A DNA stretch of 64,000 nt from contig CM041465.1 of NCBI GenBank assembly GCA_023213395.1, positions 205,227,741 through 205,291,740 on the forward strand. The letters run 5' to 3'. Origin of the DNA: Cycas panzhihuaensis (taxonomy: Eukaryota > Plantae > Cycadophyta). Of this stretch, positions 5,761-63,700 are shown piece by piece. Below the pieces are notes generated by a model, which was not told the DNA's origin, did not search any database, and saw nothing but the letters and a program-made list of their open reading frames with translations. Position 1 is the first letter of the stretch. Every line of letters starts with the position of its first letter. Position numbers and translations under genes: made by a program.

Positions 5761-6542
5761 TAAAATTTTTAATTTTCAGTATAAGAGGACTATTAATGCT
5801 TTTGACTCACCTATAATTTCATTTGTTAGTATTTATCATGATTGATAGGATGAAACAAAAATTAGCATTTATGGTAAGATTCCCCCTTTCAAAGTAAAAA
5901 AATATACTTCTCATTATAAGGTGCTTACTTTTGATATGTATGCATATCCATCACCTCCTCAAACTTATCATTTGATGTTGGTTGACTTATAAGATTCAAA
6001 TACATTTGATATTATTTCACTATTTTATAATAATTTTTCTTATTAGATCTCTCCTTATCCCAACCTATAGTCTTTCTTTGTTAATTATTAAACCACCCTA
6101 TCTAGTTTAGGCTTAAACTCTAAATTGTCAACTTAATCCTTCAAAATTAATGAGTCTACATAGTTTGAGCCTACTCAATATTTTTAGAGATACTTCTAAT
6201 TCTCTTTAATCATAATGAAGAGGCACTTAGTCTACCTATTACTCTTATTCTATTTGATGACACCTCTTTTGAGGTTATTGAGCAAGTTATAACTTCATTA
6301 GATAATCCTTTAAATGATTCATTTAATTTTTCCTTTAGTTCTAATTCATTTTATAATGAATCAAATATCATGAATAGTTTATATTTTATTGAGTCTTTTA
6401 ATTCAATCTCACTGAATTGATATATGACTATTTCTACATATGAAATTCCCATATATTCTATTTTCATTTATTTACTTAAGCCAAATGTGGGATTAAATTT
6501 CATTATTGAGTTGTAAGATAACTCATCTTATTTGGGTCAATT

Positions 6543-7198
6543 TTTAATTAGCTTTCATGACTTATGTTAGTTGGTAAAAGCTAAAGACATTCGTCTCCTT
6601 CCTTATAATGGAACTCCTTATTCGAGTAGAGTTATGGTTAGGTTATCTTCCCAAACTAGATGCCCCTTTATGCTAAGTCACACCTTTATAGATGGCATTA
6701 TCTATGATAATTAAATTTGATAATTTCACACCTAGGTTTCCTTTAATTGATATTAAATGTTTAAAACCAAAAAAAGAAAAGCATGATAGAAAAAATTAAA
6801 ATATCCAACTCATGAAACTTAATACATTTCAAGTTGGTTGAGTCAAACTAATCTTGATTTATTTTTAAATGAGTTCTTTTAATATTAATAGTGCAAGTTT
6901 TATTTTCAATCATTTTATTTTTTAACAAATAGAGCTATGTACTTTGTTGCCAAAATTTACCACTTTAGAAGGTGATTTTATGTTATTTATAATAAAAATT
7001 ATAATAAAACATTACTTTTATTGAATTATTATTACTTTTATTGGAAATAGAGATTTGATAATTCATATAAATTTACCTATAACCTTTATTAATATATGTA
7101 TCATTTTCATTATTATAGGAGACCTCTTCAATGAAATTATGTATCCTTGACTTATTATATATCTATTTTATACCTTGTTGTAGGATTTTATCTCATTT
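6543..7198. repeat. Direct repeat copy 1 (~656 bp) flanking element A
   Basis: Colinear with 22253-22907 (tttaattagctttcatgacttatgttagttgg ... ttttatctcattt), differing mostly by transitions. Confidence 0.95.
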
Positions 7199-7203
7199 AA
7201 TCA

Positions 7204-7504
7204 TCAAATTTGATAATTTCACACCTAGGTTTCCTTTAATTTATATTAAATATTTAAAACCAAAAAAAAAAAAAAAAAACATGATAGAAAAAATCAAAAT
7301 ATCCAACTCATAAAACCTAATACATTTCAAGTTGGTTGAGTCAAACTAATCTTGATTTATTTTTAAATGAGTTCTTTTAATATTAATAGTGCAAGTTTTA
7401 TTTTCAATTATTTTATTTTTTAACAAATAGAGTTGTGTACTTTGTTGCCAAAATTTTGCCACTTTAGAAGGTGATTTTATGTCATTCAATAATAGAACTT
7501 ATAA
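7204..7504. repeat. Partial third copy (~300 bp) of the same repeat, abutting the left LTR of A
   Basis: tcaaatttgataatttcacacctagg ... gtcattcaataatagaacttataa matches 6711-~7003 and 22421-~22714. Confidence 0.92.
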
Positions 7505-7863
7505 ATCATATACAAATGTTCCCAATCACAAAATCTTTTACCATACATAACAATCAAATAAATATACACACAAAAAATAGATGCATAGTACACGAGATTT
7601 ATGTGGGAAAATCTTTTCAAGAAAAAACCCACCACAAAAGGATCCTTGATGGATCTCTTAGATTATTTCATAATGGATTAATACAATGATCTTAGATGTT
7701 GAATACATAAGGCCTTAAGGCATTTATATTCTCCCAAGACGTGTCACCTAATTAGAGTTATGACCGTCCAAATAAGTCGTATCTTTTGGCTTCACACCTT
7801 TTCACTTAATTAAACCACATTAATATTAACTAAGTGAATTAATAATTAACTGCCATATTAACA
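7494..7863 (-). repeat. 3' LTR of A (outer terminus eroded)
   Basis: Aligns to 21876-22250 from agaac.. onward; ends ..attaaca next to the PPT; terminal bases replaced by the duplicated flank. Confidence 0.9.
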
Positions 7864-7929
7864 TCCCCCCTTAATGTGAATGTGGGAAGCCTGCCAACTG
7901 CAATAGTTATGTATCATAAAGGTTGGGAC

Positions 7930-10556
7930 TATCTTACAACTTCTTTATCCTTATCGATACATCTCTCATTAAAGATAACATTGGTGAGTCCAAGTTTACT
8001 ACATATCTTCATGAATTAATCTTTAGTGAGAGGTTTGATGAACATGTTTGCAAGCTAAAATTCACTCAGATAATAGTCAACTTGTAGCTTCCTTAATTTC
8101 ATCTATTCATGAATATAATAGTGTTGAATCTCTATGTGCTTTGTACATGCATGAAACTCTAGATTCTTTGATAGACAAATGGTACTTTAGTTATCAACAA
8201 AGATAACTGGGTGTCCATTTGAGACTTTTAGAAACTCTAGGAGACATTACAACTATACGTCTTCCTTTGCACCTACACTGAGTTCTTGATAGTCAGCCTC
8301 TGTAGAAGAGAGCACCACTATCTACTACTTCTTCGATTACCATGAAATAAATCCATTACCAACTCCAAACATGTATCTAATAGTGGACTTCTGATTGTCA
8401 AAATCTCCTCTCCAATCAGTATCCATGTAGCCATGTAATTATATCTCTTCACCTTGATGGTATTCGAGACCAAGATTGATAGTCCTCTTCAAATACTTTA
8501 GAATTTGCTTCACTACATCCAAATGAGGTTCCTAAGGGTTCTACATGTAGTGGGAAACCAACCTAATAGTGTATGTAATATCAGGCCTGGTATGAGTTAA
8601 ATAGATTAGGCTCCCTACCAACTAGCGATACTTTATGCCATCTATAGAGGGCTTGGCCATATCCTTCTACAACTTAACGTCTTTTACATATGGTGTTGCA
8701 ACTAGTTTGCAATTCTACATTCCAAATTTCTCTAGAAAGTTCTTCACATATTAAGACTATAACAACACAATCCTATCATCCATCTACCTGACCTGAATGC
8801 CCAAGAAGTAATGAAGTCTTCCAAGGTTTGTCATGTCAAACAAAGCTCCCATATTAGATTTGACTTTAGTAATAACCTTGCCACAATTACCGCTGATGAC
8901 CAAATCATCCACATACACCACACAAGCTACTATTAAAGTCCCTTTTCTCTTCATATATAGATTTGGGTCAAGTTTAGAAATATCAAAACCTTCAGCTTTC
9001 AACTTCGTATCTATATTTTCATACTAAGCATGGGGTGCTTATTTCAAGCCATAGATTGACTTCTTCAAACAGCATACAAGATGATCCTGGACATCTATAA
9101 CGAATCCTAAAGGCTACGACATATAAATCTCCTCCTTTAGATCTCTATTAAGGAATGCAAACTTTACATCCATCTAATGTAACTCCCAACTATAAGCTAC
9201 TGCTAAGGAAATTAATAAATAGATCATTATCATTCTTGAGACTAGTGTAAATGACTCCTCATAGTCAATTCCTTCTTTTTACTTGAATCCTTGTATAACA
9301 AGTTTAGCCTTAAACTTGTCCACCTCTTCATCAGAGGAGAACTTTGACTTGTAGACCTGCTTGCATCCTACAAGATTCTTTGTTGGAGGTAGTGGGACTG
9401 AATCCTACATATCATTCTTTAGCAGAGAACTATACTCCTCCTCCATTGTAGCTCTCTATCTTGGATCTCCTTTTGCTTCATCGAACGAATTAGGATCACT
9501 GGAGTTATTGGTACTTACTAGTAGAGTTTGATTAGCATGCTGACTTTGTGTTCTTTGATCATCAGTTAAGGTTTACATTGCCACACATGAATTTTCTATA
9601 GTCTTTCTTGCTTATAAAGATATTGAAGGACTTGTTACTAGAGGTACTTCAACTCATAGTAGCTCCTCACTATTACATGTCCCACCTGATCCTACTTCCT
9701 CAGGTGTTTTAGTGACTAGCTCATTGTCCTCTTTGCTTGATGAATATGGGAATGGAAGAAGGGGGGGAGGGGCTAAAACAACTCCTTTGATGATTTATCA
9801 ACATGATATGTTGATGTCTTATCAAATTTGACATCTTGACTAACCACATTATTTTCCCCCTGTGGATCCCATAGTTTATAGGCTTTGTTATCTATGCAAT
9901 ACCCCATGAATATGCACTTTAGACTTTTTTCATCTAGTTTCTTTTGGGTATCATCTAGGATGTGGGCATACGTAATACACCCAAACATTCTTAAATGGCT
10001 AATGACAGGTTTATGACCAGTCCATTTCTCTTCAAGGGTCATGTTGTGAACTGCTTAAGTGGGTACCCGATTCAAAATATAAACAATAGTTTCCATAACT
10101 TCTGCTGAAAATTTTGGTGACAGGTTTTGAGTATGCACCCTACACCTCGCCATCTCTATTATGGTATGATTCTTTCTTTTAGTAACTATGTTCTGTTGTG
10201 GGGTATACAGGACCATAAATTCCCACTTTATACTATAATTATAGTAAAACTGATTGAATGCATTGTTGTCGTATTCCTTACCGTTATCACTTCTTAACAA
10301 CTTTATTTTCTTATCACATTCATTTTCAACCATCGCTTTCTAGTCATGAAAGTGATCAAACACATCTGACTTATTCTTGAGAAAGTAAACCTAGGCCTTC
10401 TTGGTATAGTCATCCATAAATACTAGGGCATAATGAGCTCTAAATATCGAAGAGTTAGGAATAGGGCCCATTAGGTCTGAATGTACAAGCTCCAACTTCT
10501 CCTTGGCTCTCTAAGCATTATCCCAAGCAAAAGAATAGTGGTGGTACTTGACATAC
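7930..10556 (-). pseudogene. pol: pol of A, 3' part (integrase core, RT, RNase H)
   Basis: ORF fragments 10055-10333 (INT), 9773-10042 (KCIFMGY), 8784-9002 (YVDD RT); frequent stops. Confidence 0.92.
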
Positions 10557-10561
10557 ATACA

Positions 10562-10929
10562 TGTTGGGAATAATCCCAATGTTCGTGCACCAGAGCGCTT
10601 AGGGCCCCTCAAAGCCGCTTTTGAGGGCCCCTAGGGCACCTTGAGCCATTCAACAGCCACCCTTAGGGCACCTTGAGCCGTTCAGCAGCCACCGAGACTG
10701 ACCACTCACATGAGGTACGTATCACCGTTATTTATTTTTAATATTTTTTCAAACTAACCTTAATTGTTGTGCAGCTAGGGTGATGGCGCCCGACGCCTCC
10801 CCGAATTCTCTATTTAAGGGTTGGGAATACCTCCATGGTGTTTATTAACATCGCCACTCTATTAGAAATTACCGTTGTACTCAAGATGAGAACGTCGTGA
10901 TGTCCTGCTCTGCTCCTCCGGCTCCATCA
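10562..10929 (+). repeat. 5' LTR of B (368 bp)
   Basis: By manual alignment about 16 substitutions (mostly transitions) and one 9-bp indel versus the 3' LTR; contains a ~32-bp internal tandem repeat (tagggcaccttgagccrttcarcagccac). Confidence 0.98.
10811..10817 (+). promoter_or_regulatory. Putative TATA box in LTR of B
   Basis: cTATTTAAggg in the 3' half of both LTRs, typical position for an LTR promoter; not otherwise validated. Confidence 0.5.
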
Positions 10930-10931
10930 TT

Positions 10932-10945
10932 TGGTATCAGAGCCA
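10932..10945 (+). promoter_or_regulatory. Primer binding site (initiator tRNA-Met) of B
   Basis: TGGTATCAGAGCCA two bases after LTR end, the canonical plant tRNAiMet PBS. Confidence 0.97.
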
Positions 10946-13735
10946 CGGTGATGCTATTGTCTATTTTCTGGTTTTAGTTGCTCAAATATCTTACGAAACA
11001 TATCTATATGACTGCTCATTGAGATTCTGGCGAGCTCACCTATCTGCTGGAGAAGACGGATCTGGATTCCATCCACTGTGAAGAAAGATCTCCCGCTCGG
11101 AAGTTTGCACTCAAACTAGGTTCTTCGTTTCCTTTTATTTTTCAAACATATAAATAAATAAATGTTTTGATATATGCATTTTACTCTATACTTTGATCTT
11201 CTGTACTGGATTATTAGCTATCTTCAGATCCATTGTTCAGTTTTCATATATTGACTCTGTCGTTATATTATTCATTATTTATATTTGTCATTATATATTC
11301 CTTGTTCTTCTTTGTTTGCCATCATTACTGCATTATTATTGGCCTGTGTTTCATACCTACTCCGTCTATCCATTCTCTGTGCCGTGCATACCTGTTTCCG
11401 TTTCCATATTTACATCTACTGACTTCGCTCCGTGTCAATCCTCTCTCCGTCTTGCCTATACGCCTCTACATAGCACTCTATACTGCTGCGTTTTCGGCGC
11501 TAAGCCTCGGGTTCATTATTGTGCCTCCGTTGATTTCATTGTTCGCCCTATTCAATCCTCCCACCTTGTGCATTTCAGCGCTAAGCCTCAGGTTCAGTAT
11601 TGTGTCCCCTGTTGATATCATTGGTATTTTGTGTTCGCCGCCTCGGGTTCTCCCGTTTGTCTCTGCGTCACCCTTTCGGCGCGCAGCCTCGGGCCAGACG
11701 CCCTTTCATTTCCGTTGTTTTTGAATCGCCGTTGCGTGTTCAAACAGTCCGTTCCGTTCTATTATTCATTGTGTTGATATCTCTACGTTCACCGTTCTTC
11801 GGTATTGTGCGTTGATCTCACAGTCCGTTCCATTGATTGTATTTGCCTCGGGGCTGCTATCGTTTCGCGTCTATATGCGATCGTATTTCATGTTGTATAT
11901 TCGCGTTTTACGTTGTGATACATTGGCATATTTGCGTTGTCGTTCATTCTTGATATTATATATATTTGCGTTGCTATTTATTATATGTTTGTGATTATAT
12001 TAATCATGTTATATTTCCGTTTATATACTTACTATTGCATTGTTATTATTTAGTTTTATTTATTATATGTTTTAAAATTCGGTTTTAAAAGGTTTACGTT
12101 CTGGTTTTTACTCGACGAGGGAGTTCACCTTCCTGGTATCGGAGGTTTTACATTGCTCGGGTTTTGGGTTCAATCCCGATTCACCCATCTTCAGACACTT
12201 TTTTAATAAGTGTTTTTCAATTTTAAACTTTATTTTTTTAAAATTTTATTTTTCTATAGAGTTATTGGCACTTTTATGGCCATAACTTCCCTCTGGCTCA
12301 TCGGTTTCAGATGAAACCTACGTCAATAGATCAAAATTTTTTCGTACACCGATTTCAACTGGTCATAAGACCAATTTGGTGCCCATTTGACTTTGTTTTG
12401 ACCATTTTAACATTCACTTTCAAAATTTCAGCAGTTTTTACATTTTTAACAAAATCAGTTTTAGAACTGGCTATCATTTATTTCTGGTAAATTATTTTGT
12501 GTCCAAATTTTCTCCATAGCGATCTACGTCATATAGACTTTAATACCCATATTTTACTTCAATTTTTTGAGTTCATATTCACTAATTTTTTAATCGTTGA
12601 AATAAGAAATTTAGTGGTTTTTGCCTATTTTTTAACATTCTTCATAAACACACTTGTTACATTTTTCACTATAACTTTTGCAATTTTTATCAGATTTCAA
12701 TTCCGTCAGCTTTGTTGGGAAGCCGACTCATTTCTCTTCATTGTGACATATTTTTCTATATATTTTGACACATTTTTCTTATATTTCAAATCAGTCAAAT
12801 TTGAGGTATCCTATTTGCTATAAATCTGCTGTTTTGTTACACCTTTTAATATGTTTTTCAAAATTTTTACTTGAAAGAACATTGAGTACTTCATAAACAA
12901 TATTTGATCCTTTGTTCAACTTTTTCTAAAAGTTAAATAGTACTTTTATGCAATTTTTGCCTACCCTACTCCTGTTAGGCTCCATAAGGAGGTCCATATC
13001 TTTGCATTATTTAAATTATGATTTATTGGTATCCATTTTCAAAACCGTTTATTTTATTGGATTCATATCTCATCAATCTACATATTGATAAAATTTTAAG
13101 CTATTTTGACATTATTCAATATAGTTTTCAATCTGTTAAAGTTGAGCATATACATATATCCTAACAAGGTTGTCTTCTTTCAAAATTTTTAAAGAAAACT
13201 CTAGTTCATATTTCATTGTTTACTTAAAGTTTCTGCTTGATATTTCTACAAGTATTTTACATTGTTTTGAACTAGCATTTATCTATAAGGTAATATATAT
13301 TTTTTTCTCAAAGAAAAGTTATTCTTACATAAAAAGGTTCTTTTACATTGAAGATTTATATTACTCATTTAAGAAATTGGCATCTTTTGAAAACTATTTA
13401 TTCTCAAAAGTTTATTTCAAGTCTTGCATAAGTGAAAAGTTTTAAGCATCATTACTTTCTTATTGATCATTATACTTTTGTATCAAAGTTGTTGAAAAAT
13501 ATCATCTTTCTTGCACTTATAAAACGAAAATTGCATTTCTTTTCAAAGGCATATTACATTTGTTTAAAGGACATTATTTAAAAAAAAAAAAAAAAAAAAA
13601 AGAGAGTTTTTTGTAAAAGTTTTCATTTCATCTTGCTTAGAGCATTTTTTTTATCAAAGGAATTTTTCTTTTTCTAAGCAAGACCACATTGCTAAATAGT
13701 TTAAGTTTCACATTAAATAAGATAATTCTGAATTG

Positions 13736-14125
13736 AACCACACATTTTTACCAGCCTTGCAAGGGGAACGGTTAGGACCCCTGAAGTTACCACCCTGCAC
13801 ACGCTAATCAGCCTACTCATATTGGATGAGGACAGCCATTAGCTATCAGGTGTATACGGTGGCAGGCTGAGGTGCAGAACCTTTTCATCTTATGGTGTTT
13901 GGAGACTAAGGCTAGACCTGGAGAGGGTGAGCGCCTTTGGTTCGAGAACCTTCACCGCTAGATCTGTCGTTAAGCATAAATCTGGCGCAGGTGGACCAAC
14001 AATTCAGGGGGGTGTCAAAGCCTTCTTAGCAGCCCACGTACTGAGGTATATAGAGCCTAGCGCTCCGTACTGATATAAAGGGTCCCTGTTTTGCCATCTG
14101 TGGGTAGGCGCCATTGACAGAATAG
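13736..14125 (+). other. Conserved GC-rich structured leader domain upstream of gag in B
   Basis: Nested complementary segments (see findings); homologous to 28955-29340 (-) in element C while the surrounding leader is poorly alignable. Confidence 0.75.
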
Positions 14126-14324
14126 CAACCGAAGGTTACCCCAGGAGAAACATAAACTTAGAGCCTAGTAGCATTTCTAGGTCCTAGTTCATTTGCTCAA
14201 AACTTTGAAAACCTTGGGATATATATTTGGAAATCATTTCTTTCATTTAAAGTTCTTTCAAATTTTCTACATTTAAATAGTTTTGCTATTGCATTTATCA
14301 CATTTCATACAACTTTAATTTAAA

Positions 14325-17300
14325 ATGACGTCTAGTTTTGGGAATATGATTATTCCTAAATTTGATGGAAATAATTTTCTTAACTGGAGTAGGAGGATGA
14401 GGCCCATCCTCATAGCAAATGAAATGTGGGATATAGTAAGAACTGGTTACAATGACTTAGGATCTAATCCAACTGATACTGAAAAAGCTACATACAAAGA
14501 AAATGTCAAAAAGGATAATGAAGCCTTAGCCCTTATTTTTTGCGCTTCGGAAGATCATGTTTTCCCACGAGTTAATGAATCCATTAAGTCCAAAGAGGCT
14601 TGGGATACTTTACAGCTTATATACGAAGGGGCTGCGTCATCTAAACTATAAAACTTAAGAAGTAAGTTCGAAAATTTACATATGATGCCTCATGAATCAA
14701 TAACTGAATTTATGACCAAGATTCAAGATATAGTTAACCAAATGAGGTCCCTTGGGGATACCTTAACTGAACAAAGAGTAGTTGAATGGATCCTTCGATG
14801 TATAGGAGCCGTTAGACGCTTTGAAATGGTAGCTACTAGTATTAGTGTATCTAAAGACCTAAGTACCCACAAAATAGAATAACTTACTGCTATGCTCATG
14901 TCCATAGAAGAGCAACAAGCTGCCAATTAAACTTTAGAACATGCCTTTGCTACAAAGGCCAACATTCAATCTAACCCTCAAGATGGCACCTCAAAACAAA
15001 ACGAATCTCCTCTTAGGCGAAAAGATGAAAACCCTAGAAATGAACCTAGACAAAATCCTCCACGATACCAAGCTCCTCATACTAGACAAGGAGGACCCCC
15101 ACGACATGAAAACTCTCCAAGACATTCGAACACTCAAAGAAACCTTAACCAACGAAGACAAGTTGAAAATCATTCTTGTTGTCCACATTATCATGGGAAC
15201 CCACAACCTTCTAGAACACCTCAAAACTATCGTGACCAACTAAGAAATAATCATACTCAATTCTATGAGGAAAGGGGGAGACCTCTCAAGTTTGATCGCT
15301 CTCCACCAAGGAATCAAAATCTTAGTTATAGAAAAAGAGATCAACTATATTGCACTTATTGTCGTAGAAATGGTCACAATGAAGATAAGTATTTTTCAAA
15401 ACATGGACCACCCTCTAGAGGACATGTGTCAAATACATCAGAATCTAAAATCAACAATCGGTTATTTCTATCTAGTTTTTCAGCCATAGAAGAAGAAGAC
15501 GATAGTTGGTACATTGATTCCGGTTGTTCCACCCACATGACCTATAAAGAACAATTATTTCAAACTTTGGATGTAAATAAGAAAGGGTCTATTATGTTTG
15601 GAGACAACACCTCTCACGAATCGATTGGAAAATGTAACATTGCCTTATTGATTGATAATGGTGAATATAAATATTTAAATGATGTTCTATACGTCCCTGC
15701 TTTAAAGAAAAACTTACTATCGGTAGGACAGATGATGGGACAATATTATAAAATAATCTTTGACAACGGCGAATGTGTCATTAAAGACAAATGACAAAAT
15801 GAAGCTATTGTTGCTAGGGGTATCATGACTAAAGATCGTTTATTTAAACTTACTATCACCCCCTCAGATACATATGCCCTTAGAACCACAACTACTATGG
15901 ATAGTGACCTATGGCATCGACGTTTGGCCACCTTAATTATACCGATTTAGCCCTCATGAAAAGCTTAAATATTGTTAATGGCTTGCCCCCTATTGATATT
16001 AATAAAGAGTTGTGTGAGGGATGCCTTCTTGGAAAACACCATAGAGAAAGTTTTCCAGTTTTAGCCATCGGGCATCGCCCCTCTTCAACTCGTATACAGA
16101 TATTTGTGGCCCAATGGCCCTCCTCATAGCGGTGCCAAATATTTCCTTACATTTATTGATGACTTTACAAGAAAGACTTGGGTGTTCTTTCTCAAATACA
16201 AATCGATGCTTTCGACCACTTTGTTGACTTCAAAACCTTCGTTGAGCGACAAAGTGGATATCATATCCTCTCCTTAAGATCAGATAATGGGGGAGAATTT
16301 ACCTCTAATATCTTCAAGGATTACTGTATCCAACATGGGATTAGGCGACAACATACCAACCCCTACACCCCACAACAAAATGGTGTAGCTGAAAGGAAAA
16401 ACAGAACTATCGTAGAAATGGCACGTTGTATGCTTAAAGATAAAAACTTAGGCCATGAATTTTGGGCTGAAGCAGTCCATACTGCAGTCTATTTACTTAA
16501 TCGATGTTCCACAAAAGCAGTTAGGGGGAAGACACCAGAAGAAGCATGGACAGGTTATAAACCTAGTATCCGTCACCTTAAGGTATTTGGCTGTTTAGCC
16601 TATGCCCACATTCCTGACCAAAGAAGAACCAAATTAGATGATCATAGTGTAAAATGTATCTTTATTGGATATAGTGAATCGTCAAAATCTTACAAAGTTT
16701 ATGATCCCAAATCCTGAAAAGTTATACTGAGTAGGGATGTCAAATTTCAAGAAGACACCTACTATCAAAATAACCACGAACAACAAAAGGACATTACCAT
16801 TAAGTTTAATGCATCAAATACAACCAAATATGTGCCTCCTATGTGGAGAAACTCTCTGGAAACTACTAGGGAAACAACATCACCTCAACCACCATCACAA
16901 CCCCTACCCAAATGGGTTCAACGCAATCATGACTTAGGAAATATATTAGATAACAATCGAAGATCTACACGTTCACACAAAGTTAACTTTGCTCTAATGA
17001 GTAAGTTACTTGAAAGTCATGAGCCTCAAACTTTTGTTGAGGCTAATCAACATGAGTGCTGGCAAAAAGCCATGCAAGAGGAATATAAATCTATCGTTAA
17101 AAATGACACTTGGGAACTTGTAAACTTACCACCAAGAAAGAAAGCCATTGGAACCAAATGGGTTTATAAGACTAAGTTCCACTCTGATAGATCAATTGAT
17201 AAATATAAAGCTCATTTAGTTGCAAAAGGATATGCCTAAAGAGAAGGTATAGACTATACTGAAACATTTGCCCAAGTTGCTAGAATGGAATCAGTTCGCA

Positions 17301-18664
17301 TGATAATAAGCTTAGCCGCCCAAATGGGTTGGCCTATTTATCAAATGGATGTAAAAAGTGCTTTCTTAAATGGTTATATCCAAGAAGATATCTATGTCTC
17401 TCAACCCCTTGGTTTTGAAGTCAGGGGGGAAGAAAACAAAGTGTACAAGTTAAAGAAAGCATTATATGGTCTAAAACAAGCACCTAGGGCTTGGTATTCC
17501 TGTATCGACACATATCTTAAAGATCAAGGGTTTGAAAGATCTCAAGCAGATCCAAATCTATACACCAAAATTAAAGGAAATTCGATATTGATCGTAGGAC
17601 TTTACGTAGATGACTTAATTTATACCAGAAATGACTCCCAACTTTTAAGTCAATTTAAAGAAGCTATGTGTAAGGAATTTGAAATGACAGACTTAGGTCT
17701 TATGCACTACTTCCTAGGATTGGAAGTGTGGCAAGATAAATAAGGAATATTTATCTCTCAACGTAAATATATATTAGACCTTCTACAAAGATTTAATATG
17801 ACAAACTGTAAACCATTATCAATACCAGCAGAAATTAGAATTAAACTGTCTAAGACAGATGACTTAACTTCAGTTGATCCCACTCACTATAGACAACTGA
17901 TTGGTAGCCTACTTTATTTAACCTCTACTCGACCTGATATAACATATTCCGTAAGTGTTGTATCTAGATTTATGTAGGATCCAAAGACATCTCACTGGCA
18001 AGCTGCTAAAAGAATCCTCAGATACCTTAAAGGGACTTCAGACTTTGGATTATACTACAAACCTACATCGAGTTTCGATTAAGCGGTTATACTGATTCGA
18101 TTGATTGGTGATATTGATGATAGAAAATCTACCTCCGGTTATGCATTTAGTATGGGATCAACAGTAGTAGATTGGAGTACAAAGAGACAAAATACCGTTT
18201 CCTTATCCACAGCTGAAGCAGAATATAAAGCTGCAGTGTTAGGAGCCTGTGAATCAATCTGGTTAAGAAGACTCTTACAGGATTTTCAAATTAAACAATA
18301 AGGTCCCACTAAAATTTGGTGTGACAATCAGAGTGCCATTCAAATGACAAAAAATCCAGTATTCCATGGCAGAACAAAGCACATTGAAACTCAATACCAC
18401 TTCATTCGGGAACTTGTACAAGCAGAAGAGATAGAGTTGACTTATTGTAGCACCGAAGATCAAACAGCGGATATTTTTACAAAGGCCTTGGGAAAAATCA
18501 AGTTTGAAAAATTCAGAGATGATTTAGGAGTCATACACATTGGGCTTATGGGGGAGAATGTTGGGAATAATCCCAATGTTCGTGCACCAGAGCGCTTAGG
18601 GCCCCTCAAAGCCGCCTTTGAGGGCACCTTGAGCCGTTCAACAGCTGCCCTTAGGGCACCTTGA
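14325..18664 (+). pseudogene. gag-pol: gag-pol polyprotein of B, interrupted by point stops and small frameshifts
   Basis: Gag (PKFDGNNFLNWS), CCHC knuckle (CTYCRRNGH), protease (WYIDSGCSTHMT), INT (LRSDNGGEF, YTPQQNGVAERKNRT), RT (QMDVKSAFLNG, LYVDDLIY), RNase H (TADIFTKAL). Confidence 0.97.
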
Positions 18665-18917
18665 GCCGTTCAACAGCCACCCAGACCGACCACTCATATA
18701 AGGTACGTATCACCGTTATTTATTTTTAATATTTTTTCAAACTAACCTTAATTGTTGTGCAGCTAGGGTGATGGCACCTGATGCCTCCCCGAATTCTCTA
18801 TTTAAGGGTTGGGAATACCTCCCTGGTGTTTATTAACACCGCCACTCTATTGGAAATTGCCGTTGTACTCAAGATGAGAACGTCGTGATGTCCTGCTCTG
18901 CTCCTCCGGCTCCATCA
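18559..18917 (+). repeat. 3' LTR of B (359 bp)
   Basis: TGTTGGGAATAA...CTCCATCA directly after the PPT, followed by TSD ATACA. Confidence 0.98.
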
Positions 18918-18922
18918 ATACA

Positions 18923-20290
18923 CCCTTTGTATACATCATCTAAGTAAGTAACCAACAATAATCCTTCTACCATCTTTAACCTCTTCAACAGTGTAATACT
19001 CCTATAATTAAGGTGATTGAGGTAATTGTTCTACAACTTAGTCACATCATCCGTGTTGGAAATAAAGGTGTAGGACTTCTTCTGAGACTGAAACGTTTCA
19101 AATACCTAGAAGTTGTCCTTGACTTTCCCAGTAGCTATGACAACAAAGTTTTGTTTTAGATCCTTAATTATGCATTTATCATCATAGAGCTCTACCTTCA
19201 TACCTTGTTTGTAGATCTCCTAGGCTAAAAGAATGTTCAATTGCATCTTCAGTACATAATACACTCTAGTAAATTTACCTCTTATAATGGAAACTTTGTC
19301 GATACCTTCTACTGACAAGATGCAAGCATCACCAAGGATAATATGAGCACCACTCTGATTTGAAGTCATCGTATCAAAGTTTTACCTCTGATAAGAAATA
19401 TGCTTATGTGCTCCAGAGTCAAGCACCTAATAATCTCTCTTATTAGATTAAACTTATAAGGCTTTTTCTTGGATGCAATGAGTAGTAATGTTCTTTCCTT
19501 TATCAGCCTAGTTGACTTTGCGCTTATCATGATGCTTGAACCAATAGTTCTTCTCACAGTGAACATCCTTCTTGAAGTAATTACATTTCTCGTTGAACTT
19601 CATTTTATATTGAGAACTTTCTCCTAACCTCTGTGTAATCTTCTCCTCCTTAGAGGCCTCCTTCCTCTAAGTTTTCATGGCTAGGGCCTGACTTGAACTA
19701 GAACCTCCAAGCATATCATGATGTTTGAGCTTGGCATCCTCCATTAGAATTAGATTTTTAAGCCTATCAAATATCTTTGCTTCCATCACTTCATCTCTAC
19801 CATAAATGTTTTAGAATGTGGCAAAGGTAGCTAGAAGTTTTGACATGATTATTATGAAAAGTAATGCATTATCAATCGAGTTCGACTTCAATTCCTCTAG
19901 CTTATTCTTCAAGTCCGTAATCTTGTTAAGGTAGGAGCTAATGTTATTATCATCCTCCACATGTGAGTTGAGTAATTCCAACATTAGTGCTAGACATCTA
20001 TTTGTCTACTTCTTTTGAAATATATCACATAGTTTTCTCTATATCTCTATTAATTCATCAAGATTATGAACCAATGCTCTCTGGTTCAGCACTAGTGATA
20101 GTTTTAATAGTCCCATGGCCATAAATTACTTCTCTTCAAGATGAATATGCTCCTTATGATCTAATGGAATCGCATCCACTTTCACATTAGTGATTCCCTA
20201 GAGTTGATTCACCATTAGAATAAGTTCCATATTAGCCTTCCACTCACTAAAATTGTTACCATTGAAGATAACTTTGTGCATAATACACTC
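18923..20290 (-). pseudogene. gag-pol: gag, protease and INT zinc-binding part of A
   Basis: Minus strand reads GNNFSEWKANMELIL near 20260, a decayed CCHC knuckle near 19570-19595 and LDSGAHKH protease motif near 19405-19425. Confidence 0.85.
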
Positions 20291-21875: not shown

Positions 21876-22250
21876 TATTCGAGAACATGAAATCATACAA
21901 AAATATTCCCAACTGTAGAATTTTTTACCATACATAACAAGCAAATAAATATACACATAGAAAATAGATGCACAATATACAGGATTTACGTGGGAAAACC
22001 CTTTTGGGAAAAAACCCACCAAAAAAGGATTCTTAATAGATCTCTTAGATTATTGCATAATGGATTGATACAATGATCTTAGATGTTAAATGCATAAGGC
22101 CTCAAGGCATTTATATTCTCCCAAGAGGTGTCACCCAATTAGGGTTGTGACCCTCCAAATAAGTCACACCTTTTGGCTTCTCACATTTTCACTTAATTAA
22201 ACCACATTAACATTAACTAAGTGGATTAATAATTAACTACCACATTAACA
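21876..22250 (-). repeat. 5' LTR of A
   Basis: Adjacent to PBS complement; ends ..cacattaaca; aligns to 7494-7863. Confidence 0.93.
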
Positions 22251-22252
22251 TG

Positions 22253-22907
22253 TTTAATTAGCTTTCATGACTTATGTTAGTTGGTAAAAGCTAAAGACAT
22301 TCATCTCCTTCCTTATAATGGAACTCCTTATTCGAGTAGAGTTATGGTTAGGTTATCTTCCTAAACTAGATGCCCCTTTATGCTGAGTGACACCTTTATA
22401 GATGGAATTATCTATGATAATCAAATATGATAATTTCATGCCTAGGTTTCCTTTCATTGATATTAAATATTTAAAACCAAAAAAAAAAACATGATAGAAA
22501 AAATCAAAATATCCAACTCATAAAACCTAATACATTTCAAGTTGGTTGAGTCAAACTAATCTTGATTTATTTTTAAATGAGTTCTTTTAATATTAATAGT
22601 GTAAGTTTTATTTTCAATCATTTTATTTTTTAACAAATAGAGTTATGTACTTTATTGCCAAAATGTTACCACTTTAGAAGGTGATTTTGTGTCATTTAAT
22701 AATAAAACTTATAATAAAACATTACTTTTCTTGAGTTATTATTACTTTATTGGAAATAGAGATTTGATAATTCATATAAATTTACTCATAACCTTTATTA
22801 ATATATGTACCAGTTTCATTATTATAGGAGACCTCATCAATGAAATTATGTATCCTTAACTTATTATATATCTATTTTGTACCTTGTTATAGGGTTTTAT
22901 CTCATTT
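22253..22907. repeat. Direct repeat copy 2 flanking element A
   Basis: Colinear with 6543-7198. Confidence 0.95.
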
Positions 22908-24619
22908 TACAATGTTTGAGCCATTGAATACTACCCTAATTTATCTTCTTAGAACTCTTGCACTTAAATAAAGTGTTATAATCTTAATACAATGAACTTG
23001 TGGTATAAGGCCTTTCCTTATATATTAGAATGTTCACATTCTCATACTTTTTAAGTTTTAAGATTCCACTATACCTTTCATACTTATAACCTAGTAGCTT
23101 TTGTATTTACATGTCATTCTTAAGTTCAATCACATTATTATATATCTTGGAATACTTCAACATTGGCCTTTACAATCCTATGCTTAATTGTTTAGCCTTA
23201 GAATTACTAACGATATGTATTCACCTCATTTAAATCATTCCCTTTGTACTTATTTTGTGATTTTTATACAACTCTTACTTCTGCATCTTACACATTTTGC
23301 TTGGCCTGCTTACTTTAATATGTGTTATTGCATGATAACTTCCTATTTATTTTGGTAGCCTTTGTTGCTACTTCCTACATTTGTAGTCATTAAAGACTAT
23401 CGATATATCAAGTTAAAAATTGTTATAAGTATGAAGTCAAGCCAGAATGTTGATATTTTTCATTCACTTCAAAATTAGTATCTATAGAAGTCATTTTAAT
23501 TTTTTCTTATTATTGATCTATTTGATTTTTCCCTTTGTTGGATGAGTGATTCACTTTTATAGATTCCTAGACTTTAGCCTCTCTCCAATTCTATCTTCTT
23601 CTATTTAAGTGTCAAAAGAGCCTTAGGAACTAGAAATAAAATCCCTCTCATGGGCCATATTTTGAGAATGAGAATTTGTCTCTTTTAATGTTAGTCATTT
23701 GTTTATTTCACAATGATAGCTATAAGTTGACCTTATTCCACCTTCCTAGAGTTCACCATACCTTTCTAGCATTTGAGGCTATAGGAACTATGCATTAAGT
23801 ATCATAATGGCCTTATTAATCACTAATGTGAAGGGCTTCTTCCTTTGAAGGAGAGGGAATAACACCATCTAGTATTATCTCATGAGTGAACTATGAGGTT
23901 ACAGGTCAAAGACCACTTTTGTTGAATAATATTAAAGACAATTAGCTATTATCATTTCTTTATCAACAAATTGAGTATTTTTCCTTTAACTAATGAAGAA
24001 TTAGATCTTCTCTATTTACTCCATTATGGATTTGTTATGTTTATGCTTCATCTATTTATTTGTAATTAGAATGAGTATTTTGTACCGAAATCCTTAGCCA
24101 CAATAGCATTATTTTATCTAATATTAATATTATTTTAGTCTAGTTCTCTTAAATAAGGTTGCATATAAACCTATACCCTTGTAATCTCTAGACTCCCTCC
24201 CCTAAGCTTCAAGTAAGATATCATTATGGAGTCTAATTGGCAATATTAAACCTACTATTTTATAAGATCTTACTTTACTTTCCTTACATATACAAATATC
24301 TTTCTCTCTTCTTATTTCTTAGGTTGTGAAGGAAGTGGGAGTTAGAGGGAACAACAACTACAAAGCCATAATCTAAATAACACATTTATATCAAAATATT
24401 GGTGGTGTTAAGAATAACTAGGGCCCTATAACTTAATATAAATAGATGGGATATTGTGCAAGAGCCCAATATCTATTGTCTTTGGTGTTTAAAAACACCA
24501 CTAAAAACTAATTAGAATTTCAGCTGGGGTTGGCCAAAGTTAGCTCCACTTATCTCAATGCTAACACACCTTTTAATAACTCAAATGAATATTAATCTAA
24601 TATTTTCATCCTATAATGT

Positions 24620-28834: not shown

Positions 28835-28954
28835 TGTAAACTCAAATTAATTTAAGTATACCCCAAAAAATATAAGTGTCTTTATGTATTATCTACCTAG
28901 GGGGTTTTTAATCTAGAATTCTAAGTCTTAGGGTCTCCAAATAAAGCTCTCAAT

Positions 28955-29340
28955 TATTATCCCGTCTAATGGCATTTGCCCATAAGTGGTAAACTAGGTA
29001 CCTAATATACTAGTATGTGAGTTTAAGTCTCTATATACCTTAGTACATAGACTAATAAGAAGGTCAAAGACTCCCTAACTTATTGGTCTACTTGCACTAA
29101 ACTTATGCTTTATGACATATTTAGCAGTGGGAACTTGACCAACTAAGGTACTCACCCCCTCTAAGTCTATCCTGGTCTCCAAACTCTAATGGTAAGGTTT
29201 TCCACCTAAGCCTACTACTTATTACACCTTATAGCCAATGGTTTCTTCAATAAATTAGAGTACACCAAGGGTGTGTATGGGGTGGTAACTTTAGGGGTCT
29301 TAACTATTCCCCTTATAAGGTTAGAAAAATGTGTGGTTAA
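28955..29340 (-). other. Homologue of the structured leader domain in C
   Basis: Reverse complement reads aaccacacattttt..aaggggaatagttaagacccctaaagttaccacccc..gtttggagac..gtactaaggtatatagag..gccatt, colinear with 13736-14125. Confidence 0.8.
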
Positions 29341-30331: not shown

Positions 30332-30373
<42 letters not shown>

Positions 30374-30639: not shown

Positions 30640-30672
<33 letters not shown>

Positions 30673-34197: not shown

Positions 34198-37100
34198 TGT
34201 TAGCAATAATGTTTACTATTTTATTAAAGATGTGGATAAGTTACCTTAGGACTTCACAAGCTGTCAATAGTTTCCAACAGCCTCTAATAGCGATTAGGTA
34301 TATATTTTATATTATTATTTTAAATTTTAAAAGTGTTGGTTAATGCTGAGTTCCCTCCCAACCTCTCAACCATAAAGTAAGTGGCATTTTGCCCAAAGGT
34401 GCTTATCAACACTACCATTATATCAAAATTTTGTTACAATGGATACGTAATATTGATCTTTATGTTCTTTATATTATATTTTTTTGTAAATATGGATTAA
34501 GTCCTATTCATCTTTGTTACCCTATTTTCTTCATTTAGTATCAAGGCTTCTTGGGTTGACTTCATTTGGCTACATTTGGTATAAAAACAAAAATTTATTA
34601 ATTTTGGAGCAAATATTTATCAAAAATGGCTCACAAAAAGTATTATATTAAATTTTTATTCACTTTTATAAAGTTTATTAATAATTTTTGGCATTATTTT
34701 ATTAAATATTTGACTATTTTGATTCATATGCTCAATATAATCTATATTTTCTTAGATCTATATAGTAATAGTTAGCATAATCAACCTAACATTTGTTTGA
34801 AGTTATTACATTAAGGTTTCATTTAATATTTTATAAGATTTTAATAGTTTTCTCACTATTTTTTGAGGTTTTTTCTATAAATTTAGACTTCTATAGGCTA
34901 GTGCACTCTCCATGGAAATCTAAACTATATCAAGTAACCATTCATTTGAAAGCTTTCAGAGTCAAATTTGCACTAGATATGATAATTTCAAATTTTGTTG
35001 TCTCTTGGTGGAGATATTACTTCTAGAAGCTCACCCTCTTTGGCTGCATACTAAAACCTTAATGTACCATTTCAAAATCATTAGTTTGTGCTTTGATTTC
35101 TTTCTAATCTCTCTAGAGTAGGGTTGTAAGTCCATTAGTGACTACATAAAGGTATTTTATATGTTATTTTACCCTTTGTTTGGATCGTACAAACTCTAGT
35201 TAGTTATTCAACCTCTAAACTTTCTATCACTTTATTATGGCTCTCTACTTCATAGAATTTAATGAAACTTGAGGTGTGTCTCTGGGTTTGGCATCTCTTA
35301 TTTTTTGTAAAATTTTATCTCATTCGTAGTTGTGTACAAAGAGAATGGGTTCTCTGTTTATTTTCATGGGCACACAAATGTCTAAATTTTATTTATTTAC
35401 AAATTTTAAATTTTGATTTATTTCTTCTAAAATTTTATAAAGTTTAGCTAAATTTAATTTTGTTTTATAAATTTTGAGTTATATCCCTATTTAGCCCCCA
35501 ACCTTAGTCATTTGACCTCTTATACAACCTTATTTTTGTTTTAAAGTGGCCCACATTTTAAATTTGTTAGGTTATTTTTGATAAATTTGGATTTTAAAAT
35601 ATTCAACTCTATTTTATAATTTTTAGGGTCCACTAACCTCTTTTATTGACTAGTGACTAGTTTCTTGTATCCTTTAAGTGACCAAGGGCTTTGTTAAAGG
35701 GGACTTAACCACCCACCCCCCCCCCCCCGCCCATATTTAGTTTTTCATCATAAGAAGGTGTCTTCACTATTTTCCTTATAACTTTTGATCTAGTAGTCCA
35801 TTTTTCTAATAGTTGGATCTGTTGAAAATTTGGCACACCAATCTACGTACTAAAATTATTTTCATTATGATTTGAAATTATTTTATAATAGTTTGAGGTT
35901 GCTAAAGTTAACCCTTTAGATTGACCTAAGTTTGAGCTCTTTTCAGGATGTTTGAGCTATTTAATGATTATATTCAAGCATATTTATATTTTATTGAGAC
36001 CCTAATCTTATTTTAGCTAATTTCACTTGGTTTTTTTAGGCTTACATGTGATTTTTAATAGAATATAGTGAAAATTTTCCTCTTGAAGGAGAAGACAATA
36101 CTTGGACATTATTTAATCTATAAAGAGCCTTTTAAACCCTAAATCATTTTTTTTTTAATATTCTATTTCATTTTTTAGCTCATTTATTTTTATTTTAAAG
36201 CTCATATCAAGCTTGTTTACCTTATTTAAAGGATAATTTATCTCTTTTAAAGGTTATTTTCAAAAATCATTTAAGGCTATCTTGTTGCACCTTAAAGACT
36301 TATATAGAGTTCATTTATTATATCTTAAAAGCTCATTTGCACTTAGTTTTTTCAACTTATTAATCTTCATTTTGAAGCTCATATTAGGCTCATTTATCTT
36401 ATTTAAAGGTAACTTATGCTTCATTATTAAAGCATATTTCAAAGTTTAATTAAGGTTCCTTTATTGCACTTAAAAGTTCAACTAGAGTGCATCTTAAAAG
36501 CTTATTTAAAAGGCTCTCTTATTTCTTTACATTTTATATTACTTTAGAGTTTATTTATAAAACTTTGAAAGCTTATTTATTCAATATATATTTCATTCAA
36601 ATATATTTATTTCATTTCATTGTCAAGTTACTTTTATTTATTGATTAATAAGGAACCTTATTGGTATCAACTTGAAAGTTTATTTCTTCCATATTTATTT
36701 CATTTAAAAAGAGGTGTATTTCATTTTGATTTTTAAGTTATTTTTTATTTGATATTAAAAGGAATTTTATTTGATTAATAAGACCACATATAAAATTTAT
36801 TTTTACATATAAATGTGTATTTTATTTGGATTACGTATTAAAGTTTTCTTCATAATAGCAATAAATCTTGATGTTATGCTTATACCTACATTTGATGGAA
36901 CTAATTTTTCACTTTAGAGTAAATTTATGAAATCATTTTTTATTGCTAAAAATCTTTAGAATTTTATGAAGGATGGTTATAATGACTTAAGTGACAATGC
37001 TATATTAGAAGAGAAATAAATCTTTAAAGAAAATATGAAGAAAGACAATAAAGCATTAGCGTTAATATTTTGTGCATTGGATGACTACATATTCTCAAGC

Positions 37101-37926
37101 ATAAGTGAAATAACTACATCAAAGAATTTATGGAACACTTTAGAATTGATTCATAAGGGAGCCACAACTATTAAATTAAGGGAAATTAGATATGTTGATG
37201 ATGTATTATCTGTGGAACAAATGTTAGAATAAGATCACAATGTTATATTTAATAATATTATGTGTACCATTAACCTAAATAATTCCAACAAAGTAGATGA
37301 TCACTACAAGATAAAAGCTAAGGAAGATAAATACCCTAATAAATCCAAATCCTCCAGATCTACTTATTCAAATCAAGTCAACTTTATCCTACTAAGAAAT
37401 ACTTGGGAACTACATGAGCCTCATACTCTTGAAGAGGTCTATGTTACAATAACATCAATACAAGATGGTGACATAGAATTAGTTTATTATAAAATAAAGG
37501 AACAAGAAGAAGATCTCTTCCCTAAGGTATTTCTAAAGTTCAAGTTCCATAAATTCAAAGAGAATCTTAGTGTTATAAATAACGAATAATATGGGAGAGA
37601 ATGTTAGTAAGAATGTTTATTATTTTATTAAAGGTGTGCATAAGTTACCTTAGGACTTCACAAGCCATCAATAGTTGTTAATAGCTATTAGGTACGTGTT
37701 TTATATTATTATTTTAAATTTTATAAGTGTTGGTTGATGATGGATTCTCTTCCAACCTTCCAACCATAAATAAGTGATATTTTTCTGAAAGGTATTTATA
37801 AACATTGTCATTATGCCAAAATTTTGTTACAATAGATACCTAATATTGATCTTTATATTCTTTATGTTACTTTCTTTTGAAAATATGGATTACATCCTAT
37901 TCCACTCTATTTCCCTATTTTCTTCA
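34198..37926 (+). mobile_element. Non-autonomous copia derivative E (B/C family) with truncated Gag
   Basis: LTRs 34198-34533 and 37602-37926; TSD TCAAT/TCAAC; decayed PBS tagtatcaaggct from 34536; PPT atgggagagaa 37591-37601; no PR, INT or RT core. Confidence 0.93.
36855..37589 (+). pseudogene. Mosaic of Gag N-terminal domain, pre-RT linker and RNase H C-terminus in E
   Basis: (M)AINLDVMLIPTFDGTNF..KKDNKALALIFCA..LWNTLELIHKG, then RSTYSNQVNF..HEPHTLEE fused to IQDGDIELVYY..EQEEDLFPK..KFHKFKENLSVI. Confidence 0.85.
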
Positions 37927-38371
37927 TCAACTTCAAACCTTATAGGGGTTGGGATAAGTTTATAATCCTCTATTTTAAATTTCTTCATAATATCCTATGC
38001 ATACTTAACTTGTGAAATGAAAATATTTCTAGCCTTCTACTATACTTCCACTCCTAAAAAGTAGCAGAGATATCCAAGATTTATCATTGTGAATGTCTTA
38101 TATAGATTATTCTTTAGGTATTCAACCTTTAAGATATTATTTCTTATGATCACAAAATCATTCACATATATTACTATAAAGAAGACTGAATTTTCTTTAA
38201 TCTTGATACATAGGTTTGAATCAGATGACAACCTTTAAAACTTGTTATCTAAAAAGTACTAATCAATCTTAGAATACCGAGCTCTTGGAACCTATTTTAG
38301 GTATATAAATCCTTCTTCAAGTGATATACTAGATGCTCTTTTCCCTTTGTAATATATTTAGATGTCTACTT

Positions 38372-60745: not shown

Positions 60746-63700
60746 TGAAGGAAAAATATGTATGGAGAATAAGGCAGAATATAAAAGAGATAATCTTAAA
60801 TAAATACATCATTGTTGCACAAATATGAGAGCCATTGTATTCAATCCATTGTAGTAAAGAGAGTTACAAATATCTAATATTATAAGTGGTGTCTAAAGGC
60901 ACCAGGGTTACACACCCCTCAAATTATATAGTTTAGAGGAAGAGGAAAACTCTTTAACACTTAAAATTTAAATAATAATAAAATAATATAAACTTAACTC
61001 AAAATAAACTTAACTTAAATTAACCAAACTTATCTTATACTTACCTACACATGTTGAACACCCATATGTGTAAATTGATGAAGATGAGCTATGCATTCCT
61101 AGTTAGAAGGTGAGAGAGGGGTGATGAGCATTAACCTCAATATTCTCCCCCTTAATGGTCATCACGAACAATGTCTTCTCTTTAAACTTATAGAATTTAT
61201 ACTTGAAAAAACTTTAAAATTCTATCTCTTAACTTGATCTTTATTAACTTGCTCTAACCTTGTATTAACATGTGTCCTTCTATCATGAAGTGGTGCAAAA
61301 AATCTATAAGTAAATGTAGCTGCAAAAAGTTGTAAATAAATGAAGCTTGATTCAAACATATATATGTAGCTATAGCTTTGACTTTGTCAACTGGAATATT
61401 AAGAAAACTTTGAACTTCAACTTTATCTTTTGAAAACTTTGTATTATGAATAACTATCATATCATTATATCTCTTCTCTATCATATCATAAGACTCATTC
61501 TCCCCCTCAAATAGAGGATCAGGTTCTTGTGCAACAAGTTGATCATGCATTTTATGTGAATCTTCCTTGATTTTGTTATTATAAAATACCTGTTCTCGTA
61601 CCTGTCTCACATGCTCAACAAAAGTAATATGAAATAAATTAAGGGTATCTCCCCCATAAGTAGAAATCAAAACATCCCATATGGATTTAGAAGTAGTTAA
61701 TTCATAAACTTTAGAAAAAAATATCATCATTCATAGTGCAAAATATTAAAGCTAATGCTTCACTATCTTTTTTAATATTTTCCTTAATATTAACATCATA
61801 GTCATCTTGTACATATTTCAAAAGATCATGTGTAATAAAATAATCTTATATTGTCCTATGCCATTATGAAAATTTATAGCCATCAAATGTAGGAAATTAC
61901 ACTTGATCATGATTGATTGCCATTTTACAAAAAACTTTAGTGCATAAAAGGAAATATATTTTTACTAAGTAAAAAAGATCAATAAACTAATAAACATATA
62001 TGATTTCAAATAAACTTTTTGAAAGAAATGTAATTCCCTTTGGATAGTAAATGTAAATAAGGAAATGACCTTTTAAATAAGGATGAATAAAAAATACCTT
62101 TTAAATAAACGACAAACATATAAGATCTAATTTTAGATAGAATTTTGAAATATGATAAATGTATAAGTAAATATTTAATATAACTAAGATCATCTTAATT
62201 ATGCCTGAATTGAAACTTTAAAGATAAAAATGTAACAGTTCTTAAGATAATCCTATTAGGATATACTTGAATGCTTAAGTTTAATAGCTTCAAAGCTATA
62301 CTAAATGATATCAGAATAAAGTAAAACTTTACCAGTATGAAGATTAATGAAATTCCTATTCAATAGAACTAACCGTTTCGAAAATGGGTTCCTATAAGTT
62401 AGGATTTGAATGAACCAAAGGTATAGGCCTCTTTTTTAGGCTTGACAGGAGCCTAGGGCTCAAAATAGTATATAAATGTTAATACAAAGTGCATAGAATA
62501 CTATAAAATAATCAATTATAGTTTAGAAAACTGCTTAATATATTTTTAACTAAAAAATTTTGAGAAATAATATATAAAAAGTGTGTAATAATGGCGAGTT
62601 AAAGGCTATTAAGTACCTCTATTTTAATACTTTTGAAAACTAGTAAAAACACTTCAAAACTTATAAAAAATAATGTTAGTTTGAAGAGGAGTGAGTTAGC
62701 TTCCCAAAAAAATTGATAGAACTAAATTATAATGTCAAACAAAAAAGTTATAATAAAATTAGCGACAAGTACTTTTATGGTAAAAAGTTTAAAAAGTGCT
62801 AAAAAACATTAAAGTGTCACTTTAGTCAATTTAAATAATGATTAAAATAATTCTTAAAAAATAAAGTAAATGGATGATAATAAATTTTTTTGATAGTAGT
62901 CAACTACAAAATAGATCTGGGTGGAAAGTAATCTTCTGGTGATAAGATATAATCTATTAAAAAAGTGATTTTGTAAAAAGGTTTAAAATGGCTTTAAAAT
63001 TAAATGATCGACTTTAAACTGAATGAAACAGGGTCAAATCAACTCCAAATAGGTCATATAACCAGTCAAAATCAAATTTCAGAAAATTTTAGATGTAATG
63101 GGACTAGTTTTGTTAGAACCCGATGACCTAGTAAAACGTTATGGCAAAAAAATGCCAATTACCCTATGTAAAATGAAAAATTTTTTAAATAAAAAGGAAA
63201 AAAAAATTATAAACTTTTGTTGGCCTCTTTAATGATAAGTTAAGGTCATGTGAGGGCTTTAGGTGATTGGGGGCTAGAGTGTAAAGGGGCTAATATTTTT
63301 AAAATATAGATTTAAAAATTTATATATTATAATTCAAAATTTTAAAAAATTTATAAAAAAGAAATAAAATATTTTTGTCGCCAACTTGCTGTCACCAAGT
63401 TGTGTATGCATAGACGTCTATCAGGTGGTCATGCCTATGATGCAGTTGCACCTATTCCACTCCCAAGCCACCCTTCGTCGCCCTCCTACACTACTACTGG
63501 ACCAGATGTGAAGGATTTCTCAAGTAGATCAATAACGATGATGCCAAAGGGGAGATGCCAATAAGGATCTCTCCAAATCTCAGATATGGGCAGGTTTGAG
63601 TTGGTTTTTGTAAATAAAATATGGACTTTAATAGTAGGGGATTTAGGATTTGATTTGCTATGTGTGCCATCACTTGAATTAGTATATGCAAAGTACTTGA

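Follow-up and report, generated by a model that had tools for sequence, protein, structure and literature searches.

The untranslated leader of element B, a Ty1/copia retrotransposon of the cycad Cycas panzhihuaensis, contains a conserved non-coding module (13736..14140, + strand of the 64,000-nt stretch of contig CM041465.1 that was analysed, here called the window) that has been under selection as strong as that acting on the proteins of the element. The module is predicted to form a multi-domain RNA upstream of the gag start codon, and comparison with an older element, C, supports conservation of this structure on the sense strand, with two full copies only to compare. We tentatively favour a role for the module in initiating translation of gag-pol, a reading that we hold at a little short of an even chance.

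Element B is complete but decayed, and has an LTR pair with TG...CA ends, a target duplication, a primer site and the gene order gag-PR-IN-RT-RH. The 5' LTR (10562..10929, +) is followed by an untranslated leader of 3395 nt (10930..14324, +) that is about 40% U and depleted of AUG on the sense strand only; near its 5' end is the primer binding site (10932-10943, +), which we take to be of the Met type. The coding region (14325..18558, +) carries several stops and frame breaks, and it matched Pfam entries PF13961, PF14223, PF22936, PF00665 (below cut-off), PF25597 and PF07727. The 3' LTR occupies 18559..18917 (+), and the 5-nt target duplication lies at 10557-10561 and 18918-18922. The best integrase match, 69% identical, clusters together with three proteins from Ginkgo. 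The stretch was present, whole or in part, in 20 of the 24 listed sequencing runs (11 studies), and about 19,500 contigs mapped to 1 kb of B in each of two DNA runs, which indicates that the B family is abundant.

Several other features of B and its surroundings were observed. The RH frame runs on past the LTR boundary and is free of stops over the first 35 codons or so of the 3' LTR. A U-rich stretch of 60 nt in the 5' LTR (10715-10774, +), repeated in the 3' LTR, precedes a TATA-like box at about 10810 and contains what we take to be donor, branch and acceptor motifs resembling the plant-intron consensus. On the opposite strand (-), the window contains the terminal repeats of a second copia element (6540-7864 and 21890-22907), which are long and 87-94% identical, together with pieces of its pol gene (7977-10366 and 19160-19585), and B appears to be nested inside that pol gene. 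Kilobase-scale (TA)n arrays lie at 1355-2347 and 30335-31150, the second of which breaks up the leader of C.

The second copy of the module (28942..29338, -) lies in element C, whose LTRs are at 32045-32319 and 24327-24600. The LTR pair of C differs at 52 of 273 sites and that of B at 16 of 358, in agreement with the view of the initial annotation that C is much the older element. That annotation had also described a block shared colinearly with C within a leader and LTR that are otherwise hard to align. Consistent with this description, B 13644-14124 and C 29422-28958 were colinear and 70% identical over 489 nt, while the rest of the B leader and its LTR gave no alignment to C at E<1e-4. The block is indeed GC-rich within an AT-rich leader, although it is not the sole GC-richer stretch, as 11350-11950 has 47% GC. 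The module ends about 185 nt upstream of the gag AUG.

Where B and C differ within the block, the change is mainly from a C of B to T or from a G to A (54, versus 12 in the reverse direction), an excess expected from the decay of methylated DNA, so that transversions are the fairer measure of constraint. Transversions were found at 33 of 376 sites in the module (8.8%), at about 20-27% of sites in its flanks and at 44 of 126 four-fold degenerate sites of gag and pol (35%; P=7e-11 versus the module). The rate in the module was similar to that at codon positions 1 and 2 (124/1504, or 8.2%; P=0.75). Comparing its divergence with that of the flanking leader and of synonymous sites, as had been proposed at the outset, separates the module from both; constraint on the module persisted even though B and C are now only 42% identical at four-fold sites.

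The predicted fold of the module, given here on the + strand of B, begins with an invariant unpaired 14-mer (13736-13749). This is followed by Domain I (13752..13869), a three-way junction with a short G/C hairpin and a long irregular arm, on which the MFE and centroid predictions agree. All six pairings that had been named for this 5' region were recovered at their positions; they are the helices of both the MFE and the centroid fold of 13752-13869, with mean pair probabilities of 0.74-0.98 for five of them and helix probabilities of 0.69-0.98 for Domain I. Domain II (13870..13936) is predicted to be an irregular stem-loop and is the least certain of the domains, with alternative registers possible and a second prediction that folds differently. 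Domain III (13937..13999) is a predicted long stem-loop, in which all 8 pairs of the helix 13956-63/13980-87 are canonical in C, 5 of them changed. Domain IV (14000..14093) is a second predicted three-way junction, with a short 5' hairpin and a long arm, and small hairpins are predicted 3' of it to about 14182. The further hairpins that had been suggested (ggtga/tcacc and ggtt-cgag-aacc) can be drawn, but the B ensemble favours other pairings, and the second does not persist in C. No conserved pseudoknot was found between the unpaired regions of B and C, where two weak U-run pairings of 5 bp are kept.

Conservation of the fold was assessed by predicting pairs from B alone (103 at P>0.5) and scoring them in C, with a null in which the substitutions of C fall at random on like bases. 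Of the 100 ungapped pairs, 79 were canonical in C, compared with 69.5 +/- 3.6 under the null (P=0.006). Where a G of B had become A in C, its partner had changed from C to T in 8 of 13 pairs, versus 6 of 32 where the G had stayed (P=0.008). Antisense folds used as controls gave P=0.20 and 0.31, and all nine coding-window controls gave P values of at least 0.068, none below 0.05. Sliding the sequences reduced paired cells from 89.7% to 31-48%, a drop that is partly built into the control. Sixteen of the 103 predicted pairs were broken in C by changes other than decay, some through alignment slip, and only two double changes included a step other than decay. Transversions were not significantly rarer at paired than at unpaired sites (15/203 versus 18/177; P=0.22).

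Folding energy alone did not single out the module from shuffled sequences: the z score of the whole block was 0.07 in B and -0.42 in C, and that of the 5' junction was -1.6. Among the 40 population variants listed, of 159, 20 fell in 13736-14190, and 8 of the variants in the module were A>G or T>C changes. On visual inspection, 7 of these 8 turn a mismatch or a G-U pair into G-C, with the helices partly chosen afterwards, and an energy test on the 8 variants was not significant (P=0.094). The initial annotation had proposed a selected, cis-acting structured RNA, and this proposal is supported by the constraint on the module (33/376 versus 44/126) taken together with the pair-keeping on its sense strand (79/100).

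The module was also compared with other kinds of sequence. It lacks the codon pattern of the coding region, with identity by position of 0.79/0.70/0.72 versus about 0.7/0.8/0.5 in gag and pol; its indels, of 1, 2 and 4 nt, break the frame, and the open reading frame at 13843-14070 has no Pfam match. These features argue against a protein-coding remnant. A covariance search with Rfam 15 gave no match at gathering score in the whole window, and the 8 weak matches found at E<=10 in 13500-14400 all lay outside 13736-14125; nor did the module match the IRES or CITE families of Rfam, in line with the earlier remark that it is not a named RNA family. ARAGORN found no tRNA, and a string at 13939-13950 that we take to resemble the Pol III B-box motif is lost in C. 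A tRNA-derived SINE or a captured known non-coding RNA was therefore rejected. Cores of group I or II introns and of hammerhead ribozymes were found neither by eye, from their motifs, nor with Rfam. A match to a captured coding or known RNA sequence, which the annotation had itself raised as an objection, was thus absent from Pfam, Rfam and ARAGORN results alike.

Splicing of the leader had been suggested as a further check, and the evidence, which covers 13680-14700 only, points away from it. Of the 15 joints listed, out of 20, none had GT..AG ends. The AG at 14279-80 was not the majority letter pair in either of two DNA runs, and one contig, from a run whose RNA label is guessed, spans 14042-14613 from the module into gag with no large skip, a weak indication. 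Summed contig depth was greater over the module and gag than over the spacer, but this measure does not allow parts of the sequence to be ranked and was given no weight. The purging of AUG from the leader likewise argues against the leader being an intron.

Searches outside the window detected the module in no other family among metagenome, viral and bacterial collections, which are poor in gymnosperm DNA. A scan of metagenomes with a DNA motif of the module gave no match, and the matches in viral contigs (9 and 2) and bacterial genomes (1), all 12 of which cover about the motif alone, were taken as chance. Scans with the gag of B gave 0 loci in viral contigs and none among longer proteins, and a scan with its integrase gave none in bacterial and viral contigs. 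In metagenomes, gag was confirmed in at least 111 stretches; the best 80 were 27-41% identical, and blastn, nhmmer and two covariance models all failed to place the module in any of these 80 loci. The models were built on two sequences, which makes these negatives weak. Within the window, the same models gave only B and C below E=0.3. The literature consulted, which held few subscription papers and no supplements, described no such module in gymnosperm copia elements, and repeat libraries in supplements could hold the family.

Two relatives of B and C within the window were found to be internally deleted, and the module is absent from both. Element E (34198..37927, +) has two LTRs, a long leader and the 5' end of gag, with only scraps of pol. 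C 29450-29356 corresponds to E 36720-36814 (75%) and C 28872 then corresponds to E 36818, so that about 480 nt over the module are missing. The LTRs of E differ at 50 of 326 sites and its target duplication has one mismatch. With its LTRs and near-perfect target duplication, E probably moved as a deleted unit, for which packaging would have been needed but translation would not. Element D (61690..63203, -), for which no LTR pair was found, shares 1.3 kb of the middle leader of B (63%) and runs into a 5' fragment of gag.

The leader of E is closer to that of C than the leader of B is, which makes loss of the module more parsimonious than gain. D and E have LTR and gag-to-3' sequence in common, so that their lack of the module possibly reflects one loss, or descent from families that never had it. 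Imperfect short direct repeats surround the module in B (13686-13723 and 14268-14287) and could be the mark of an insertion, or microhomology used by elements of the D and E type in losing the module. Leaders in the window also look mosaic: the middle leader of D is B-like (63% over 1311 nt), whereas that of E resembles C (60% over 867 nt), although D and E have LTR and 3' sequence in common, a pattern that suggests recombination between co-packaged RNAs.

The initial annotation had assumed that many upstream ATGs make the leader unsuited to scanning. This assumption was overturned. The leader (10930-14324) has 16 ATGs versus 49.3 expected (P=3e-8), a strong depletion that fits long-range scanning. 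ATG is the most depleted of the 64 trinucleotides there, with an observed/expected ratio of 0.32, whereas the lowest value among 192 overlapping control windows was 0.75, and the antisense strand showed no depletion (102 versus 81.6 expected). A pyrimidine occupies position -3 in 12 of the 16 leader ATGs, while the gag AUG has an A there. Upstream of the module, the nearest ATG is at 13018 and opens a frame of 48 codons that stops about 570 nt short of the module; 13895 to 14324 is free of ATG. The leader thus looks shaped for scanning ribosomes, or for avoidance of upstream open reading frames. Between the module and gag lies a U-rich spacer (14141..14324, +) with one hairpin (14163-14182) and a length that is not conserved in C. 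The segment 14190-14330 was the least structured of the leader segments measured, at -0.076 kcal/mol per nt versus -0.307 in the module.

Older leaders in the window are AUG-poor too, with observed and expected counts of 9/14.4 in C (28834-30330), 8/12.4 in D (61923-63400) and 17/27.3 in E (34545-36854), and the 5' part of the C leader is not (23/23.5). Other copia families, from metagenome loci, are likewise AUG-poor upstream of gag (L033, 10/19.7, and L039, 13/29.1, over 1.5 kb; L047, 2/11.1). L033 and L039 have two gag-proximal blocks in common (about 72%) that are unrelated in sequence to the module and less conserved than their own gag. In the B leader, the lowest sense folding z scores (-2.0 to -3.0, in three of 59 windows of 130 nt) were found at 12135-12394 (+), at the start of the part common to B and D; this segment is a candidate for a packaging signal retained by a non-autonomous relative.

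Under the translation reading, ribosomes would scan about 2.8 kb of the U-rich leader of capped LTR transcripts, and 40S complexes would be recruited or re-captured by the module, acting as an IRES-like element or as a scanning enhancer. It would then pass them to the AUG-free, unstructured spacer, from which scanning would continue to the gag AUG. The module would work beside cap-dependent scanning, as a back-up over 3.4 kb rather than as a replacement. Such dual use has precedents: cap-mediated and IRES-mediated routes both contribute to the synthesis of retroviral Gag (PMC12789967), and Idefix uses both routes (PMC3735527). Against an IRES, the translated RNA of BARE1 is capped, and in RTBV the absence of internal AUGs helps scanning over 900 nt (PMC5902531). 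The constraint, the sense-strand structure, the position before an AUG-free spacer and the loss in D and E all count for a role in translation. This role is favoured because E, which probably needed packaging but not translation, shed the module, and because the module adjoins the unstructured, AUG-free run-up to gag. Because AUG is depleted along the entire leader, cap-dependent scanning must either work or have been selected for, and an IRES becomes less necessary. We regard it as doubtful, if conceivable, that the module is a genuine, discrete IRES in a plant LTR retrotransposon, about 430-480 nt long, gained or kept by autonomous members of one gymnosperm copia lineage and shed by its non-coding parasites. 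Such an IRES would be a new structural class, with a predicted architecture of two three-way junctions flanking two stem-loops, and would be usable for bicistronic expression in plants.

A packaging and dimerisation signal (psi/DIS) just before gag is the strongest rival, although we consider it rather improbable. Such a signal might also act as a switch, melted by ribosomes and stabilised by Gag binding or dimerisation, so that the RNA is diverted to particles. The position of the module matches that of retroviral psi, and AUG depletion counts for this role by making an IRES unnecessary. Palindromes are typical dimer contacts according to the accessible text of PMC516450 and, for PAL1/PAL2 of Ty1, of PMC6844567. 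A candidate contact of this kind is a 10-nt palindrome at 13755..13764 (+), which is perfect at the same place in C with both central letters changed (joint P about 0.018, post hoc). It overlaps two helices of the monomer, so that dimerising would need refolding. However, the palindrome lies outside any apical loop, and the gain predicted by dimer cofolding was ordinary, being equalled by 92% and 38% of shuffles. E and D, for which packaging was needed, also lack the module, and the Ty1 signals lie within the first ~380 nt (PMC6844567), whereas the module is 2.8 kb further in than the primer site. The argument from loss is itself weakened by TR-GAG, a non-autonomous family described, in the part of PMC4350172 available, as without significant leader structure. 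The initial annotation had left translation and packaging side by side; absence from D and E tilts the balance to translation, and the conserved palindrome tilts it back.

Other roles for the RNA, in exporting the 8-kb genomic RNA from the nucleus, in stabilising or localising it, or as an aid to reverse transcription, are unlikely. Structured transport elements are known in simple retroviruses and mouse LTR elements. The size and multi-domain fold of the module and its sense-strand-specific constraint fit such a role, and short derivatives might do without it, but there is no Rfam match, and the fixed place before an AUG-free spacer and gag would be unexplained. Least likely is a DNA-level element (an internal promoter or enhancer) or a captured host or viral RNA fragment with relic pairing, which would suit the sharp boundaries of the module relative to E and the whole-block folding z of about 0, but sits badly with constraint that outlasted the four-fold sites, with strand-specific pair-keeping, with the lack of a tRNA, Rfam or Pfam match and, for an internal start site, with the purging of AUG from the upstream 2.8 kb (14 versus about 41 expected).

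Translation, and the sorting of RNA between ribosomes and particles, have been worked out for few plant LTR retrotransposons with multi-kb leaders. The family of B offers a sharply bounded, strongly constrained module, naturally deleted relatives without it and very many genomic copies for covariation analysis, which makes the question directly testable. That AUG has been purged from 3.4 kb of leader is in its own right evidence that scanning over very long distances was under selection. If the translation reading is true, a plant-element RNA with internal ribosome recruitment would be useful in plant expression work.

Among known systems, picornavirus IRESs of types I and II are about 400 nt long, comprise several domains that include junctions, and are separated from the start codon by a U-rich spacer free of AUG; at their 3' edge is a pyrimidine tract, with an AUG about 20 nt further on. 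The module resembles them in size, in its domains with junctions and in its spacer. It differs in having no Rfam match and no cryptic AUG, and in an upstream leader that is AUG-purged like a scanned, capped RNA. Type IV and intergenic-region IRESs have a conserved pseudoknot beside the start site; this class was set aside, as the gag AUG lies about 185 nt from a module that has only the two weak U-run pairings. Retroviral 5' leaders with psi and IRES activity (MLV and HIV-1; available parts of PMC12789967 and PMC516450) are alike in placing a multi-hairpin RNA with a palindrome just before gag, with a possible dual role in translation and packaging. In contrast, the module closes a leader of 3.4 kb, at a distance of 2.8 kb from the primer site, has no sequence or Rfam match to them, is absent from non-autonomous relatives and belongs to a plant host.

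The 5' cis region of Ty1 and the leader signals of BARE (PMC6844567 and PMC3735527, in the parts available) are likewise structured cis-acting RNAs with palindromes in the genomic RNA of Ty1/copia elements. The Ty1 region, however, is the first ~380 nt (PMC6844567), and non-autonomous BARE2 retains its dimerisation and packaging signals (PMC3735527), whereas D and E lack the module. Caulimovirus shunt leaders (CaMV and RTBV; accessible text of PMC5902531) similarly place a large structure before a UA-rich, unstructured landing stretch and the first long open reading frame. Unlike these uORF-rich leaders with one long stem-loop, the B leader is AUG-poor, has a row of domains and lacks a short uORF that terminates close to the 5' base of the structure; a pararetroviral shunt was rejected for want of this take-off uORF. 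Lacking the Rfam match, cryptic AUG or pseudoknot of the named IRES classes, and the retention in non-autonomous relatives that marks psi, the module is filed under neither. Structured cis-acting leaders are already known in LTR retroelements, and the module is unusual in its distance of 2.8 kb from the primer site and in its detachable behaviour.
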